A stretch of DNA of 64,000 nt from Methylococcaceae bacterium (GCA_050303415.1 JBNLBS010000019.1:16545-80544); one strand, 5' to 3'; shown: positions 32,327-37,682, counted from the stretch's first letter. The notes: generated from the letters alone by a model not told the origin. Translations and numbers: made by a program.

Positions 32327-32920
32327 TTAATCCATTCGATTAAGCGCTGAGCTTAATGTTTTTACTGTTTCCAATACCAGTTTACGTTGTGCTTGATCCA
32401 AGGATGAATATAAGGTCATCAGTTCGCGTATATCTTCCGGAAATGACAAGCACAATGGATCGTGCTCAACATGCTGTTCATCCATCCAGCCCTTAGGAAG
32501 TGAAAAATGACTTTCATATTTTCTCGCAATGGTTCTGGAGATGGTTTTAAACGGGTTATCAATAAATAACAAAAGTTTATCAATATCGATGTCTAAAGAG
32601 TGTACGAATTCATTTAATTTTTTTTCCTGGTCTTTGATTTCTTCATAACTATTACACAGGTTTTGATGCCGGATGGCCTGCAGATCCCTGGCATTGGGCC
32701 GAATAGGTCCGAGCCCGAACATCAGCCAGCAGGGTGAACTTTGTGTGGCTTTGGCAATTCGTAATATATCATCCGGCCCCGGGGTTGATATACCGGCTTC
32801 ATAATTACCGATTCGTGATGCGCTCCAGCCCGGTATTTGTTCCAATAGCGCAGCCTGAGTATTAAGCCCGGCCATTTTTCTAGCCATTTTTATCCGTGCC
32901 GCAATCGTTTTTTCGCTCAT
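32327..32920 (-). CDS. XRE/Cro-CI-family HTH transcriptional regulator with unrecognised ~140-aa C-terminal domain; start probably MSEKTIA at 32920
   Basis: HTH_XRE pattern IAARIKMARKMAGLNTQAALLEQIPGWSASRIGNYEAGISTPGPDDILRIAKA. Confidence 0.7.
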   Translation of the reverse strand: MSEKTIAARIKMARKMAGLNTQAALLEQIPGWSASRIGNYEAGISTPGPDDILRIAKATQSSPCWLMFGLGPIRPNARDLQAIRHQNLCNSYEEIKDQEKKLNEFVHSLDIDIDKLLLFIDNPFKTISRTIARKYESHFSLPKGWMDEQHVEHDPLCLSFPEDIRELMTLYSSLDQAQRKLVLETVKTLSSALNRMD

Positions 32921-32999
32921 AATTTTGCTTTTTAACCTTGGTGTGAACAATCAATTCATTTATTGGCACAACATTTTACAAGAAACTTGAAAAAAAATA

Positions 33000-33027
33000 T
33001 TGACAATCTTGATTTTAATTTTATAAT
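33000..33027 (+). promoter_or_regulatory. Near-consensus sigma-70 promoter TTGACA-16 nt-TATAAT with upstream A-tract
   Basis: TTGACA 33000-33005, TATAAT 33022-33027, AAAAAAAAT UP-like element 32991-32999; divergent from XRE gene. Confidence 0.55.
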
Positions 33028-33034
33028 GCCACCA

Positions 33035-33248
33035 ACATTTAATTTATTAGGATTATTCCCTGATGACTTTTAACAACGGAAAACTAAATATACGCAAGCA
33101 GCCGGCAATAGCAATGCTTTATACATTGCATGCTGTTTGTTACAGGTTGAGTTAGGTCTTCCGTTTCAGGAAGGCCGTGCAGTTGCCTTCCAACTTATTA
33201 AAGTTTCAGTAGAAACCCCGGTTGGATCTCTGCCAACCGGGGTTTTTT
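33035..33248 (+). ncRNA. Candidate small transcript (sRNA or mRNA for a 28-aa peptide MTFNNGKLNIRKQPAIAMLYTLHAVCYRLS) ending in a strong rho-independent terminator
   Basis: Consensus promoter upstream. Internal hairpins are present. Terminator AAACCCCGGTTGG-atctctg-CCAACCGGGGTTTTTTATT lies at 33213-33250. Confidence 0.3.
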
Positions 33249-33530
33249 ATTGCCCAAGGACAGGCTACCTACTTTAACCGTTAGTTCTTGAGGTAGATTT
33301 GTCAGTCAGGTTTTGGATGCACTTAACGTGACCGGTATCAGCCTGACCGCAGAATTCAGGTAACTGACATGATTGCAAAAAGCTTGTTGTTATAACTAAA
33401 CATTAATCATCGATAATCCGATGTACCGAATTGGACGGATGCTGTTAATCCAGCGGTTCAGGTTCTGTATACCTGTCCGGCGCACGATACATTTTGTTGA
33501 CTGTGTACCCGATTAATAGTGGTTCAATAA

Positions 33531-33603
33531 CTCGAGGATAGCTCAATGGGTAGAGCGGTTGACTCATAATCAACTTGTTAAGGGTTCAAGTCCCTTTCTT
33601 CGA
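33531..33603 (+). tRNA. tRNA-Met (anticodon CAT)
   Basis: Manual cloverleaf folds in full: 7-bp acceptor TCGAGGA/TCTTCGA with one G-U pair, D-arm GCTC-AATGGGTA-GAGC, anticodon stem GTTGA/TCAAC with loop CTCATAA, T-arm AAGGG-TTCAAGT-CCCTT. CCA is not encoded. Confidence 0.7.
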
Positions 33604-33606
33604 TCC

Positions 33607-33674
33607 TGGAAAAGTAGCTCTTGGTGAGCCCGGATGATAAATCCGTTTATGTAGGTTCGAATCCTACCTTTTCA
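33607..33674 (+). other. Degenerate tRNA-like element: intact acceptor, T-arm GTAGG-TTCGAAT-CCTAC, but D-loop and anticodon loop only 5 nt each; 3 nt downstream of tRNA-Met
   Basis: Manual folding: GGAAAAG...CTTTTCA acceptor with 1-72 mismatch, D GCTC-TTGGT-GAGC, AC-stem CGGAT-GATAA-ATCCG; 68 nt, too short for a canonical tRNA. Confidence 0.35.
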
Positions 33675-34005
33675 CTTTTAACCTGCAACACAGGTTTATT
33701 TTGATCTTCGGATCGTAGGGTCGGCGCCAGTCGGCGAATATGGAGTTTGTTTGACAAAGGATGTTGGAGACAACGGCGTATTGGCTTTGCATGGTGTCAG
33801 CCGGATAAAGTTCAGAACAGTTTATTGATACAGGTCCATTCGATGGGCGCGCTTGACAGGATGTCCACATCAGCAAACAGGTCTTTACTTTTTCCGCCAG
33901 ACAACATCCGCCAATAGGTCGTGGCGCCGAACCTAAATTTTTACCAATAAGGATTTAAACAATAATACTGCCTTAAAAGGCAACAAAAAGGGAATGGAGG
34001 GAACA

Positions 34006-35145
34006 ATGTTTATCAAACGATTTATCATTGCCGAAAATGAACGCGGTTTGTTTTTTCACAACCGGACTTTACAGGACATTATGGAATCCGGCGTCTACAC
34101 CTTTGTCGATTGGCGCAACCGGATTAAAGTCGAAATTTTCGACTTGAACGAACCGGTTTTTAAACACAGTCTGGAGGATGTGTTGTTAAAGCAGCACGAG
34201 GATTTATGCAAAACCTATTTCCAGGTCATCCAGCTGAATGAAAACCAAGTAGGTTTGGTCTACCGCAACGGCCTATTATCTGAGGTGTTACCGCCTTCTA
34301 CCAGAACGTTTTACTGGAAAGGTTTGATTGATATAGACGTTGAAGTCATCGACATTAAATCCGATTTTCAATTGGATGCAGACAAGACCCGGTTATTGAC
34401 CCGTGTGCGAGATGCTGCATTGGTCAGGGTTTTGGCTAACTACATCACTGTTGCCGAAGTGGCGGACCAGCATGTCGGTTTATTGATTGTCGACGGTCAG
34501 TTGATCAAGGAATTACAGCCTGGTGTCTATGCATTTTGGCGTTTCAACCGCTCGATTAAAGTCGAAATGGTCGATAAACGGGTTCAAATGATGGAAGTCT
34601 CAGGTCAGGAAATTTTGACCGGAGACAAAGTGTCATTACGAATCAATCTGTCAGTGGCCTTTCAAATACAGGATGCGGTGAAAATACGTTCAGCATTCAA
34701 GGATATGTTCGATTACTTGTACCGCGAATTGCAATTCGGTTTACGACAAGCGGTAGCCGGTAATACGTTGGATAATTTATTAGCGGAAAAAGGTTCGGCC
34801 GAACAATGTGTATTTAAATACATTTTGGAAAGGATTCAAGATTGCGGTATTCGCTTTATTACAGTCGGTATTAAAGACATTATTTTGCCGGGTGATATGA
34901 AGTCGATTTTAAACCAGTTAGTGGAGGCGGAAAAACAGGCTCAGGCCAATGTTTTAAAACGCCGCGAAGAAACCGCAGCAACCCGGTCATTGCTGAACAC
35001 TGCAAAATTGATGGATGAAAATCCAACTTTAATGCGTTTGAAAGAGCTGGAGGTTTTGGAAAAAGTCACCGGCAAAATTGACCGCATGACCGTTTTCGGC
35101 GGTTTGGAAGGTGTCTTAAAAGATACCGTTAAAATCAATGTGTAA
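34006..35145 (+). CDS. SPFH/band-7 (stomatin-prohibitin-flotillin) domain protein. Its N-terminus has two extra tandem copies of the SPFH N-terminal beta-unit. Start ATG 34006 after GGAGGG
   Basis: C-terminal LRINLSVAFQIQD...ITVGIKDIILPGDMKSILNQLVEAEKQAQANVLKRRE SPFH core is present. Three internal repeats begin ERGLFFHN..., ENQVGLVYRNG... and DQHVGLLIVDG..., each followed by G-Y-F-W and the [IV]KVE/DVEV motif. Confidence 0.7.
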   Translation: MFIKRFIIAENERGLFFHNRTLQDIMESGVYTFVDWRNRIKVEIFDLNEPVFKHSLEDVLLKQHEDLCKTYFQVIQLNENQVGLVYRNGLLSEVLPPSTRTFYWKGLIDIDVEVIDIKSDFQLDADKTRLLTRVRDAALVRVLANYITVAEVADQHVGLLIVDGQLIKELQPGVYAFWRFNRSIKVEMVDKRVQMMEVSGQEILTGDKVSLRINLSVAFQIQDAVKIRSAFKDMFDYLYRELQFGLRQAVAGNTLDNLLAEKGSAEQCVFKYILERIQDCGIRFITVGIKDIILPGDMKSILNQLVEAEKQAQANVLKRREETAATRSLLNTAKLMDENPTLMRLKELEVLEKVTGKIDRMTVFGGLEGVLKDTVKINV

Positions 35146-35172
35146 CTATCAGATCTTCTTGGTTAAGCACCA

Positions 35173-35193
35173 TTGCAGTGTTAAACACTGCAA
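35173..35193. promoter_or_regulatory. 21-nt perfect palindrome TTGCAGTGTTaAACACTGCAA in the SPFH-rtcB spacer, followed by a second GC hairpin (GACCCGGGcaatggGGCTCGGGTC)
   Basis: Read directly from sequence. Confidence 0.4.
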
Positions 35194-35260
35194 ACTGATT
35201 TGTTACATAGAGCAGGAATAAGACCCGGGCAATGGGGCTCGGGTCGATGAGGATAAGATT

Positions 35261-36457
35261 ATGCCTATAAAAATGAAAATGACAAAAGGCAAGGTACCGG
35301 TCAAAGTTTGGACCGAAGATATTGAATACGGTGCCATTCAGCAATTATGCAATATCGCGCAAATGCCGTTTATCCATAGTCATGTTGCGGCCATGCCTGA
35401 TGTGCATCAGGGGATTGGCGCAACCGTGGGTTCGGTGATACCGACCAAGGGCGCCATTATACCTACCGCAGTGGGTGTTGATATCGGCTGCGGAATGAAT
35501 GCGGTCAGGTTAACGCTTAAAGCTGAACAATTACCGGACACTCTAAAACCGGTGCGTAACGCCATTGAAGCGGCCGTACCTGTCGGCTTTGCCATGCATA
35601 ACAAAGATATGGCCAGACATTCGACCATTATTGCTTTGGCCGAACCATTGGGCCGATTACAGGAAAAGCATCCGGCGATCAAAAAAATGCAGAAAAAGCC
35701 ATTTCAAACCTGGGTTAGACAACTGGGTACTTTGGGTGGCGGCAACCATTTTATTGAACTGTGCCTGGATGAAAGCAACGACGTCTGGATTATGCTGCAT
35801 TCCGGCAGTCGGGGTATTGGTAATGCGATCGGACGTTACTTTATCCAGTTGGCCAAAAAAGATATGGGGCAACAACTGGGACATTTACCGGATAAGGATC
35901 TGGCCTATTTTACTGAAGGTGCACAATACTTTGAGGATTATGTCGAAGCCGTGCATTGGGCGCAGGATTATGCCATGTGGAATCGCAGGGAAATAATGCG
36001 TTCGATAGTTGATGCATTGAAAGACGTCCTGCCGCGATTTCAAGTCAGCAAGGAAGCGATTAATTGCCATCATAATTATGTTGCGCTCGAACAGCATTTC
36101 GGGGAACAGGTTTATCTGACCCGCAAAGGGGCGATCAGTGCCGGCCAAGGCGAGCTGGGTATTATTCCCGGCAGCATGGGGGCCAAGTCCTATATCGTTC
36201 GGGGTAAAGGTTGTGCCGCTTCATTTCATTCCTGCTCACATGGTGCTGGCCGGGTAATGAGTCGTTCACAGGCCAAAAAACGCTACAGTTATCGGGATGT
36301 CGAAGCGCAGACTGAAGGCATTGAATGCCGAAAAGACAGCGGCGTTATCGATGAAATTCCGGCGGCCTATAAGGATATTGATCACGTAATGGAGAACCAA
36401 TCAGACTTGGTTGAGATTGTACATACCCTGAAACAAGTCGTTTGCGTCAAAGGATAA
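35261..36457 (+). CDS. rtcB: RNA-splicing ligase RtcB (3'-phosphate/5'-hydroxyl RNA ligase)
   Basis: Conserved metal/GTP-binding residues pattern: VGVDIGCGM, GGGNHFIE, HSGSRG, CHHNY, full length 398 aa. Confidence 0.9.
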   Translation: MPIKMKMTKGKVPVKVWTEDIEYGAIQQLCNIAQMPFIHSHVAAMPDVHQGIGATVGSVIPTKGAIIPTAVGVDIGCGMNAVRLTLKAEQLPDTLKPVRNAIEAAVPVGFAMHNKDMARHSTIIALAEPLGRLQEKHPAIKKMQKKPFQTWVRQLGTLGGGNHFIELCLDESNDVWIMLHSGSRGIGNAIGRYFIQLAKKDMGQQLGHLPDKDLAYFTEGAQYFEDYVEAVHWAQDYAMWNRREIMRSIVDALKDVLPRFQVSKEAINCHHNYVALEQHFGEQVYLTRKGAISAGQGELGIIPGSMGAKSYIVRGKGCAASFHSCSHGAGRVMSRSQAKKRYSYRDVEAQTEGIECRKDSGVIDEIPAAYKDIDHVMENQSDLVEIVHTLKQVVCVKG

Positions 36458-36506
36458 GCCGGATGTTCGGTTGGGCATCCGGTTTTATTGCAACAGGAAA
36501 ATTGTT

Positions 36507-37484
36507 ATGAAACTGGAAACTATTAAAGAAATTATTGAAATCATGCCTAAAGGTAAAACCAGATTTCACTATTTTAAAGATCGCTACGCTTTAATGTTGT
36601 TATCCGATTTAATTGAAGACGGGATTAAACTTTCCGAGCTTAAGACGACACCTTGGGCAAAACTGTTGAACCGACCGCTGGTTAAAAGCTTGAGCTCCCA
36701 GTGTGGTGACGGTGTGCTTTATAAGCATGATCTGGACAGTATCTGGCCGGATTTTACCAGGCAGTTTTTACTTACATTAAGCCAATGGGGCGGAGAACGG
36801 GCAAGCTGGCAACAAACCTGCCGACATGGCTACAATCTGGTATTGCAACTGAATTTCAGCAATCAGCATCATGCCTTGTTTAACAAACTGCTAAGGCCGA
36901 TGAAACATCATAGCCTACGCAGTTGCGGGCATCCGGTTATGCAGCCGGATGAACGTGAGTTATTTCGGGAAACACTGGCCTGGGCACGTATAGATCTGGA
37001 TTTTGACCGCAATGAAGCCCTGATTGAAGAAATTCAAAACGACTGGCTTAGGAATGCGCTATGGTGGTTGAGTTATGTCAAAAGATGTCAAAAAAATCAA
37101 CGACGGTTACCCGCAAATTACTGTTTGCAGACCGACTTGGAAAAAGTCCAAAGCTATTGCGATAAAGTATTAATGCCATACCGCAAAATGTGGGATGAAG
37201 CGATGTTGGCGGCCAGCATCGATTTTATCTACAAGCAGCTGGGTATAAACGTCATTTATTATCACAGCTACGAAAGCGGCGCCTGGTTAAAGTCCATCTC
37301 ATCTACGCTGCCGCCTCGGTCTTTATATACCGATTTACCTAAGCGCTTTTGTTTTACCTGTACCGAACAGGAGCCGACTTTCCTATCTGAAGATCGGTAC
37401 TTTAGAAACCGTAAACGCAAGGGTAAACACCTAAACTATTACTGGTATAGGATGGATTTGGGAGCTGGTCATGTTACGGCCTAG
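36507..37484 (+). CDS. Hypothetical Cys/His/Trp-rich protein co-transcribed with rtcB (start probably MKLETIKEI at 36507 after AGGAAA)
   Basis: 325 aa, no recognisable motif; CGDG, CRHG, CGHP, CFTCTEQ Cys clusters; 50-nt gap from rtcB. Confidence 0.45.
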   Translation: MKLETIKEIIEIMPKGKTRFHYFKDRYALMLLSDLIEDGIKLSELKTTPWAKLLNRPLVKSLSSQCGDGVLYKHDLDSIWPDFTRQFLLTLSQWGGERASWQQTCRHGYNLVLQLNFSNQHHALFNKLLRPMKHHSLRSCGHPVMQPDERELFRETLAWARIDLDFDRNEALIEEIQNDWLRNALWWLSYVKRCQKNQRRLPANYCLQTDLEKVQSYCDKVLMPYRKMWDEAMLAASIDFIYKQLGINVIYYHSYESGAWLKSISSTLPPRSLYTDLPKRFCFTCTEQEPTFLSEDRYFRNRKRKGKHLNYYWYRMDLGAGHVTA

Positions 37485-37682
37485 GAACTATGTCGCTCGT
37501 TCACCGATGTTACGCAAAGGCGGCGTGCACGAGCGTTGTCAATCCGGTAAACGCCAACAGCAAAAACAGGATCTAAAGGGTGAACTGGACTCTTTGGCGT
37601 TGACTGATCATGACCTGGAAGAAAATCAGCTAAACCCAGATGCCAATAAAAATACCGAGGAGTTTTTTAGTTAATTAACTCA

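Follow-up and report, generated by a model that had tools for sequence, protein, structure and literature searches.

A probable RtcB-centered RNA-repair and rescue operon in a Methylococcaceae bacterium, with an SPFH protein, tRNA-like RNA, and a candidate leader-peptide attenuator

Why a gene for the RNA ligase RtcB stands among a tRNA, a tRNA-like element, an SPFH protein, and a 325-aa protein (P325) is the question raised by a 64,000-nucleotide stretch of Methylococcaceae DNA (GCA_050303415.1 JBNLBS010000019.1:16545-80544), here called the window. A sequence-only reading had placed an XRE repressor, a strongly promoted small transcript, tRNA-Met, a tRNA-like element, SPFH, RtcB, and the 325-aa open reading frame between positions 32327 and 37484, and each was recovered at or near its proposed position. 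The 3′ limit had to be moved, as a conserved 67-aa open reading frame carries the unit on to 37674. The known RtcB partners that the same reading had called missing were indeed not found: RtcA queries from related loci gave no tblastn match in the 64-kb window, and RtcR, archease, and Ro60/TROVE were absent from the cassette and from the genes on either side of it, among them those for an MCP, a hydrolase, malic enzyme, glutaredoxin, and an amylase. A neighborhood check across 80 related loci indicated that the gene order is conserved well beyond the source genome, with RtcB adjoining P325 in 44 of the 80, SPFH present in 17, and XRE in 10, and these loci support the earlier reading of an RNA-repair or stress module centered on RtcB. 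Other neighbors were ArfB-like, PrfH, RbfA-like, RtcA, and HNH genes, and in three loci (L030, L053, and L060) P325 adjoins an RtcB-PrfH pair. We conclude that the region from approximately 33000 to 37674 is probably one operon, divergent from its XRE regulator, and a compact representative of the SPFH/Band-7, tRNA-like RNA, and RtcB repair systems to which a GNAT-fold P325 and a small basic protein have been added.

RtcB joins RNA ends carrying a 3′-phosphate or 2′,3′-cyclic phosphate to 5′-OH ends. The RtcB of the window (35261 to 36457, plus strand) matched PF01139 at E=4e-131, and its motifs DIGCG, GGGNHF, HSGSRG, HHN, and SHGAGR, including the Cys, His, and nucleophile-His motifs, aligned to those of RtcB proteins in the PDB, the solved P. 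horikoshii RtcB among them. Judged by that alignment, the active site is intact. The gene beside it (33994 to 35145, plus strand; gene callers start at 34006) encodes a cytoplasmic SPFH/Band-7 protein of the slipin, PA4582 type (Band_7 E=3e-24), and its homologues carry PA4582 and slipin names. The first SPFH beta unit is repeated twice more at the N terminus, and a long helix lies at the C terminus. The triple repeat had been proposed from the sequence and was borne out both by pairwise BLAST (unit 1 versus 3, E=7e-6; unit 2 versus 3, E=2e-4) and by an AF2 model with three five-strand units at residues 7-50, 76-120, and 151-194.

Upstream of the SPFH gene, ARAGORN called a plus-strand tRNA-Met(CAU) at 33532 to 33606, with an Rfam score of 68.6 bits and no encoded CCA. 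Directly 5′ of the tRNA lies a structured RNA element of three predicted helices (33444 to 33531, plus strand), of which about 35 nt were 83-94% identical in most related loci by blastn and in which RNAalifold indicated compensatory changes at 13 of 22 pairs. Directly downstream, at 33608 to 33675 on the same strand, is a second, degenerate tRNA-like element that scored 31.4 bits against a gathering score of 29 for the Rfam tRNA model and was not called by ARAGORN; its T-arm, GGTTCGAATCC, is conserved, and its anticodon loop, UGAUAAA, lacks U33. At the equivalent position, aligned relatives mostly carry an anticodon-like hairpin, a GNRA hairpin, and a T-arm that covary, and the element of the window differs in architecture from that three-hairpin arrangement. 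A long structured spacer or 5′ untranslated region follows (33716 to 33935, plus strand), with inverted repeats at 33716-29/33922-35 and 33773-85/33910-22; the fold of 33676-33993 had a z of -4.0. The spacer is only partly conserved, through the motif CATCCGC..GTGG and a single nhmmer match, in L015.

In the related loci whose upstream region was covered, the SPFH gene is preceded at a distance of 316-529 bp by a tRNA with the same conserved body, the exceptions being L064, in which none was found, L042 and L048, in which SPFH is truncated, and L077, which has another gene order. The anticodon of this SPFH-linked tRNA differs among loci, reading CAT, GAT, TAG, TGT, or TCT, or is replaced by a degenerate loop, as in L036 and L067. 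This conserved arrangement argues that the tRNA and the tRNA-like element are true parts of the module, as first proposed, and not chance neighbors. We conclude from the alignments that the tRNA is embedded in a larger conserved, putatively structured RNA in which the anticodon varies, a combination for which no published description was found in the literature examined.

The operon is faced by a divergent XRE-family helix-turn-helix gene (32327 to 32950, minus strand; Pfam HTH_3 E=4e-6, DicA-like in NCBIfam), the only regulator adjacent to it; the sigma-54 activator RtcR, with its CARF domain, does not adjoin the operon. The open reading frame gives 207 aa from a TTG and 197 aa from the ATG at 32920, and the latter is the likely start because homologues align from residue 16. 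Ten related loci have a homologue (46-68% identity) that is likewise divergent and in the same position. An operator-like palindrome, TACAAGAAACTTGA (32977 to 32990, plus strand), sits just 5′ of a -35 hexamer and is conserved when all XRE loci are aligned. Among the 81 loci, the motif ACAAGAWNCTTGW was found in a single copy in every one of the 10 XRE loci, as well as in L055 and in the contig copy of the window itself, and had no further occurrence. The palindrome is presumed to be the XRE binding site. The hexamer belongs to a sigma-70 promoter, TTGACA-16-TATAAT (33000 to 33027, plus strand), which matches the consensus at 12 of 12 positions and keeps its place in the leader alignment.

The small transcript attributed to this locus has a perfect promoter and terminator, and is here recast as the leader of the operon. 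It is approximately 215 nt long, with a folding z of -5.6, and contains a 30-aa open reading frame, MTFNNGKLNIRKQPAIAMLYTLHAVCYRLS (33063 to 33155, plus strand), preceded 10 nt upstream by AGGA. The TAG stop codon (33153-33155) abuts segment A of a putative attenuator (33156 to 33251, plus strand) composed of segments A (33156-33163), B (33166-33175), and C (33185-33194) and an intrinsic terminator, a 13-bp hairpin at 33213-33245 followed by a T run, the U run of the RNA. Constrained folding indicated that A:B and B:C pairing are mutually exclusive and that the left arm of the terminator is an alternative partner for C; the folds switch between A:B with antiterminator and B:C with terminator. 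Across 11 loci the A:B helix was 96.6% paired with compensatory changes at 4 of 8 pairs, the B:C helix 91.8% paired with 4 of 10, the terminator 95.8% paired, and the antiterminator 82.8% paired, the last being a short helix with almost no covariation. The full-length minimum free energy structure usually prefers B:C and the terminator even without a ribosome, and read-through would therefore depend on kinetics.

A covariance model of the attenuator (R1) scored 61.4 bits in the window and matched 28 further loci, and all 29 matches had the orientation of the operon and preceded tRNA arrays, RtcB, or P325; RtcB was lacking from 15 of the 29. Most attenuator-bearing loci have an open reading frame of 9-83 aa whose stop falls at one common alignment position, and a C terminus of ...MT* is frequent among them; the window's leader peptide lacks it. 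No Rfam family matched the element, and no published description of the leader was found in the literature examined. We conclude that the transcript resembles a transcription attenuator of the leader-peptide type, with covariation in its alternative helices, and that the leader appears built for sensing failing translation, a putative logic read from folding and covariation.

P325 (36507 to 37484, plus strand) had been described as rich in Cys, His, and Trp, which its composition bears out only to a modest degree (C 2.5%, H 3.4%, W 3.4%), and as having no recognizable family. The second description holds for sequence families, as P325 is uncharacterized and had no match in Pfam, NCBIfam, PADLOC, or PDB sequences, but not for the fold, which is recognizably GNAT-like. 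The structure model is confident and contains the GNAT core with an extra N-terminal domain and insertions. Motif A is noncanonical (EEIQNDWLR); at the position of the Q/RxxGxG/A pyrophosphate-binding loop, between beta4 and alpha3, P325 reads Q-N-D-W-L-R and appears to have no Gly-rich acetyl-CoA loop. Moreover, GNAT profiles of Pfam and NCBIfam gave no match at E<0.1, and a P325 profile matched no PDB sequence. P325 is modeled as a GNAT-like fold protein and is a candidate enzyme, a role that is putative because the acetyl-CoA loop appears to be missing and a GNAT profile match is lacking. The 67-aa basic protein that follows (37471 to 37674, plus strand; motif RN.VA.SP(L/M)LRKGG.H) overlaps the P325 stop by 14 nt, and the overlap makes translational coupling likely. 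Gene calling on an independent assembly also includes it, tblastn found it in 45 of 80 loci, and it directly follows P325 in 36 of 78; it had no Pfam or PDB match and no RHH or HTH match. The pairing of a conserved acetyltransferase-fold protein with a small basic protein is apparently undescribed. SPFH is present in only 17 of the 80 P325 loci, which suggests that the units formed by SPFH/tRNA and by P325 may not depend on each other.

Taken together with the operon assignment as one joint explanation, the likely function is RNA repair and rescue induced by translation failure. XRE would bind the conserved palindrome beside the promoter, and transcripts that started would normally be halted at the attenuator, where a ribosome at the leader stop is proposed to cover segment A, leaving B to pair with C and the terminator to form. 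If translation were compromised by cleaved or depleted tRNAs, damaged ribosomes, or antibiotics, the ribosome would remain short of the stop codon, A would pair with B, C would pair with the terminator's left arm, and read-through by RNA polymerase would follow. The product would carry a structured RNA that includes the band-7-associated (b7a) tRNA and the second tRNA-like module, and then SPFH, RtcB, P325, and the small protein. RtcB would reseal breaks with 2′,3′-cyclic-phosphate and 5′-OH ends in tRNA or rRNA, and an oligomerizing SPFH with the tRNA-like RNA may act as a scaffold, a cofactor, or a decoy for nucleases, along the lines suggested for Ro60 and Y RNA. To our knowledge, a physical or functional interaction among SPFH, the tRNA-like RNA, and RtcB has never been shown for any member of the system. 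P325 and the small basic protein would make up a rescue unit of their own, whose target is probably tRNA ends or stalled ribosomes, and the 17 to 20 tRNA genes that some relatives carry in the same slot would serve as a backup tRNA set.

Alternatively, the cassette might be the decayed remnant of a horizontally spread island with a long tRNA array (L-array), whose main job was to supply spare tRNAs, with the single tRNA an ordinary functional tRNA-Met or tRNA-Ile2 and with SPFH, RtcB, and P325 as passengers. Relatives with the XRE-leader-SPFH layout do carry such arrays between XRE and SPFH (20 tRNA genes in L005, 17 in L011, and 19 in L036) and an HNH endonuclease, like cyanobacterial L-arrays, and the window's tRNA scores as a good tRNA. 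We nonetheless consider this unlikely, as the SPFH-adjacent tRNA is a distinct conserved species that has conserved structured RNA of its own on both the 5′ and the 3′ side, no encoded CCA, and a freely changing, sometimes degenerate anticodon. Moreover, a single tRNA and a single tRNA-like element are present in the window where a long array would be expected to have more than 10 tRNA genes, the window shows neither compositional anomaly nor mobility genes, and most P325/RtcB loci are without any tRNA. That the tRNA stands next to SPFH-RtcB by coincidence hardly deserves credence: tRNA genes often serve as landmarks of bacterial genomes, but chance adjacency is refuted by recurrence of the arrangement, with conserved spacing and flanking RNA structure, in at least 12 independent loci of different lineages.

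Antiphage defense or abortive infection, with the tRNA mimic sensing phage attack, was the other candidate of the sequence-only reading, and no support for it was found. RtcB counters ribotoxins, XRE regulators are common in defense islands, and the leader would also fire upon phage shutdown of host translation. None of the five proteins, however, matched a PADLOC defense model apart from weak HTH noise in XRE (E of about 1e-3), no P325 family member occurred among 50,697 phage and 72,556 plasmid records, the neighbors are housekeeping genes and do not make up a defense island, and the conserved partners are repair and rescue factors (ArfB-like, PrfH, RbfA-like, and RtcA), making defense improbable. 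It is very improbable that P325 and the small gene are a GNAT-toxin/antitoxin pair of the TacT/AtaT type that acetylates aminoacyl-tRNA and sits beside RtcB with no repair role. The GNAT-like fold, the tightly coupled small partner, and the tRNA-related context would suit such a pair, but P325 is twice the size of known GNAT toxins, appears to lack the acetyl-CoA loop, has no GNAT or toxin-antitoxin profile match in Pfam, NCBIfam, or PADLOC, and precedes its partner, which matched neither RHH nor HTH; the unit would also be under attenuator control and not autoregulated.

The RNA repair and rescue reading admits a bolder, tentative extension: P325 and the small basic protein could be an unrecognized attenuator-controlled rescue module, with P325 a new GNAT-fold enzyme and the leader a new class of cis-regulatory RNA. 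If so, the P325 module would occur by itself in roughly one-third of the loci examined and, in the others, would have been joined repeatedly with RtcB, SPFH/tRNA-mimic, ArfB-like, PrfH, or tRNA-array genes. Its substrate would be damaged tRNA ends, aminoacyl- or peptidyl-tRNA, or stalled ribosomes, and its leader would read global translation failure through ribosome occupancy of the leader stop codon.

The gene association had been thought undescribed, which does not hold for its core. According to the citing account in bioRxiv 10.1101/312249, RtcB, Band-7/SPFH, and a b7a-tRNA were predicted computationally as a system by Burroughs and Aravind in 2016 (NAR 44:8525); an SPFH gene lies within the P. 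aeruginosa rtc locus (PMC13086221), and a tRNA-array/rtcB neighborhood is described in cyanobacteria (PMC8421152). On that account, the core of the cassette is a widespread bacterial RNA-repair operon already predicted in 2016, sharing with those systems RtcB, the adjoining Band-7 gene, the tRNA-like gene beside it, and a sporadic distribution that looks horizontal. Relative to the 2016 systems as citing papers portray them, the window adds P325, the small basic protein, XRE, the attenuator, the conserved structured flanks, and the second tRNA-like module.

The same SPFH family adjoins RtcB in the P. aeruginosa locus rtcR-PA4582(PaFlo8)-rtcB-rtcA, but that locus has the sigma-54 activator RtcR and RtcA, whereas here there is neither and control is apparently by XRE and attenuation. 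Salmonella rsr-yrlBA-rtcBA, which is induced by tRNA damage, likewise encodes an oligomeric scaffold protein and a tRNA-mimicking noncoding RNA with RtcB, a Y RNA with a tRNA-like domain; here SPFH stands in place of Ro60/TROVE, and the Rfam YrlA model scored 16.1 bits against a gathering score of 69. The cyanobacterial L-array (trn operon) regulon also combines tRNA arrays, an HNH gene, and rtcB in one neighborhood, of which the window keeps only one tRNA and one mimic. There, induction of the arrays and rtcB by translation inhibitors is experimental and promoter direct repeats are credited with regulation (PMC8421152), whereas here induction by translation failure is inferred and an attenuator and XRE operator would regulate. 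The RtcB2-PrfH rescue and repair module similarly couples an RtcB paralogue to a ribosome-acting factor, but the window lacks PrfH, and the identity between its RtcB and PrfH-linked RtcB is only 27-29%. Relative to the GNAT acyl-CoA N-acyltransferase superfamily, P325 is set apart by the missing profile match, the extra N-terminal domain, and the insertions. Finally, like the ribosome-mediated transcription attenuators of the trp/his, erm/cat, and P. aeruginosa PA5471 leaders, the leader places a short open reading frame, mutually exclusive helices, and an intrinsic terminator, here behind its own promoter, 5′ of the regulated genes, but it has no regulatory codon run, and it is apparently the ribosome at the stop codon that masks segment A.

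A divergent XRE/HTH gene (32327-32950, minus strand; Pfam HTH_3, NCBIfam DicA-like) marks one end of the cassette and is followed by a perfect consensus match to a sigma-70 promoter (33000-33027) and by a 13-bp terminator hairpin ending in a T run (33213-33245). Next come tRNA-Met(CAU) (33532-33606), called by ARAGORN and scoring 68.6 bits with Rfam, and a second tRNA-like element (33608-33675) that was uncalled by ARAGORN and scored 31.4 bits with the Rfam tRNA model, narrowly above the threshold of 29. Genes for a 383-aa SPFH/Band-7 protein (33994-35145), a 398-aa RtcB (35261-36457), and a 325-aa protein, here called P325 (36507-37484, plus strand), complete the list of elements named by the sequence-only reading, each of which was located. 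The end of the cassette, placed by that reading at 37484, has to be moved, since an ORF for a small basic protein of 67 aa (37471-37674) starts within the 3′ end of the P325 gene, overlapping its stop codon, and continues to 37674. A second, independently made assembly of this organism annotates the small ORF as a gene. As had been stated, the usual RtcB partners are absent: RtcA was not found anywhere in the 64-kb window, and RtcR, archease, and Ro60 were not found in the cassette or its flanks. The cassette neighbors are ordinary chromosomal genes (MCP and malic enzyme), and no compositional anomaly was detected in the window.

The region downstream of the promoter had been taken for a strongly promoted small transcript. 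Both promoter and terminator stand, but the element has alternative helices and a leader ORF and looks like an attenuator. In an alignment of XRE-proximal intergenic regions from 11 loci, the order of features is an operator-like palindrome, the promoter, an RBS with a short ORF, three segments called A, B, and C, and a strong intrinsic terminator. The leader ORF in the window (33063-33155) encodes 30 aa, and segments A (33156-33163), B (33166-33175), and C (33185-33194) lie directly 3′ of its stop codon, where A and C are alternative pairing partners of B. When the fold was constrained by a ribosome occupying the stop codon (15 nt masked), B:C was paired and the terminator was free to form. 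With no ribosome there and a transcript ending before the right terminator arm, A:B was paired and C paired with the left terminator arm. Across the 11 loci, helix A:B was 96.6% paired (compensatory changes in 4 of 8 pairs), helix B:C 91.8% (4 of 10), the terminator helix 95.8% (3 of 11), and the antiterminator formed by C with the left arm 82.8% (1 of 9). We conclude that the small transcript region looks like a leader-peptide attenuator, as judged from its folding and covariation.

A covariance model of the attenuator matched the window at 61.4 bits and 28 further loci, on the operon strand and always 5′ of a tRNA array, RtcB, or P325; RtcB was missing from 15 of the attenuator-bearing loci. 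The leader ORFs are 9 to 83 aa long, stop at the first position of the model in most loci, and often end in ...MT*. Their peptides use 17 to 20 kinds of amino acid, which by our estimate is unremarkable for their length. No Rfam family matched the attenuator, and within the leader/tRNA region the Rfam His-leader and YrlA models scored far below threshold. Among the titles and abstracts retrieved for RtcB with a leader peptide or terminator, or for PA4582, none describes such a leader. The palindrome, ACAAGAWNCTTGW, occurs once per XRE locus and otherwise, among 81 loci, only in L055. This locus carries the operator motif (L055:5940-5952) and the attenuator, yet no XRE homologue was found in it by tblastn; a different regulator may use the XRE operator site there. 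In the simplest reading, healthy translation would lead to termination at the leader, and failed translation would allow read-through into the operon. XRE would act as a repressor.

The tRNA is embedded in a larger structured RNA. In SPFH loci with the upstream region covered, a tRNA or tRNA-like gene lies 316 to 529 bp 5′ of the SPFH start, the exceptions being L064 (none found), L042 and L048 (SPFH truncated), and L077 (gene order differs). These SPFH-linked tRNAs have a conserved body (D-arm TAGCTCA..GGGTAGAGC, acceptor GAAGA/TCTTC) and varied anticodons (CAT, GAT, TAG, TGT, and TCT, with degenerate loops in two loci). Because the anticodons vary, selection for a single decoding identity is a poor explanation, and the pattern fits a mimic or bait. 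A conserved three-helix element lies 5′ of the tRNA (33444-33531 in the window) with compensatory changes in 13 of 22 pairs, and the 3′ flank in aligned relatives consists mostly of an anticodon-like hairpin, a GNRA hairpin, and a T-arm. Compensatory changes affect 26 of the 52 pairs of the composite RNA taken as a whole. The window has a fuller but degenerate tRNA-like element in place of those downstream hairpins of the relatives, with which it shares the T-arm. A stretch of roughly 220 nt (33716-33935) in the spacer from the tRNA-like element to the SPFH gene is strongly structured (z = −4.0) and only patchily conserved. A short motif, CATCCGC..GTGG, is kept 5′ of the SPFH RBS in 12 of 13 loci. 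The window also contains a 13-nt direct repeat, TCAGGTTTTGGAT at 33306-33318 and TCAGGTTCTGTAT at 33458-33470; the second copy forms the hairpin of the conserved 5′ element, and the first may be a degenerate remnant of a lost tRNA module.

RtcB is widespread in bacteria, and to our knowledge the natural substrates, cofactors, and inducing signals of bacterial RtcBs have been worked out in few cases only, namely RtcR-controlled operons and RtcB2-PrfH. We know of no experiment on the SPFH/tRNA-mimic branch of RtcB systems, the core of which was reportedly described by Burroughs and Aravind in 2016 (as cited in bioRxiv 10.1101/312249). The RtcB of the window retains the catalytic motifs of solved RtcBs and has an intact active site. 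The triple repeat of the SPFH protein is real, and its homologues are annotated as "slipin family" or "PA4582." An SPFH gene, PaFlo8/PA14_60630, sits within the rtcR-rtcB-rtcA locus of P. aeruginosa (PMC13086221). The association proposed as undescribed is therefore known in its core. The apparent novelty lies in the attenuator, in the extended structured RNA, and in P325 paired with the small protein. A role as scaffold or decoy is proposed for SPFH and the tRNA mimic.

P325 has a GNAT-like fold and, as claimed, belongs to no recognizable family, with no match in Pfam or NCBIfam. Its 1,236 homologues all lack a Pfam domain, fall into 831 clusters at 50% identity, and are nearly always about 300 to 335 aa long. 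Invariant residues include Q177, D179, W180, H253, K262, and Y274. Where GNATs have a Gly-rich acetyl-CoA loop, P325 reads EEIQNDWLR, a strand equivalence that we infer, and classical acetyl-CoA use is therefore doubtful. P325 gave no match in PADLOC, in PDB sequences by profile, or in phages and plasmids by tblastn, and the suggested defense role is unsupported. Members of the small basic ORF family share the motif RN.VA.SPLLRKGG.H, and the family matched nothing in the databases. An ArfA-like identity, suggested by a resemblance, found no support in Pfam or PDB profiles. Four distant P325 homologues (P0307, P0325, P0368, and P0374) carry a basic, Gly-rich N-terminal extension of about 80 aa with ..GGMGGRLGRSNM.H.., which looks like the small ORF, but the Rosetta-stone link was discarded as evidence because hhalign gave a probability of 2.4%.

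A scan of species-representative genomes returned 533 P325 relatives, and the best 80 of the 533 were compared as loci. RtcB directly adjoins P325 on the same strand in 44 of the 80, and 40 of those 44 RtcBs are at least 60% identical to that of the window. SPFH is present in 17 of the 80 loci, an XRE regulator in 10, and a detectable small basic ORF in 45 (immediately 3′ of P325 in 36 of 78). Further recurrent neighbors came out of ORF clustering and Pfam scanning: an RbfA-like protein immediately upstream of RtcB in 18 P325 loci (e.g., L047:3971-4420, 150 aa, PF02033, E = 6e-9; the window lacks it), an HNH endonuclease in 8, RtcA in 5, an ArfB-like RF-1-domain (GGQ) protein after P325 in 4 (L042:3082-3507, L035, L055, and L067), and PrfH with RtcB beside P325 in 3 Desulfobacterota loci (L030, L053, and L060). 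These neighbors are RNA-repair or ribosome-rescue factors. Three Methylococcales loci (L014, L019, and L025) have two RtcB paralogues within 5 kb, about 57% and 70% identical to that of the window, with RtcA and an RbfA-like gene beside them. We conclude that the original interpretation as RNA repair or stress was right in kind. P325 and the small protein could have a rescue role, and P325 would be a new enzyme family within RNA and ribosome quality control.

The cassette thus offers a compact, testable model for switching on RNA repair and spare tRNAs upon translation failure, with a mutable switch (operator, leader ORF, A/B/C, and terminator) and two partner proteins, both unstudied. Should the attenuator model hold, translation failure itself would induce the repair genes and spare tRNAs, with no dedicated protein sensor needed. 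In three relatives, ARAGORN identified tRNA arrays between XRE and SPFH, with 20 tRNAs in L005 (1452-4367), 17 in L011 (56-2947), and 19 in L036 (3008-5037). The arrays cover most amino acids and are flanked by XRE/leader and HNH/SPFH/RtcB genes. As relatives hold 17 to 20 tRNAs in the same slot, the window cassette, with one tRNA and one mimic in about 4.7 kb of ordinary chromosomal context, is a minimal version. The arrays recall the horizontally spread "L-arrays" of cyanobacteria, which are expressed only once translation is inhibited and whose neighborhood includes rtcB and an HNH gene (PMC8421152). The same attenuator model, if correct, would tie the systems of proteobacteria to the cyanobacterial tRNA arrays that are induced by stress.
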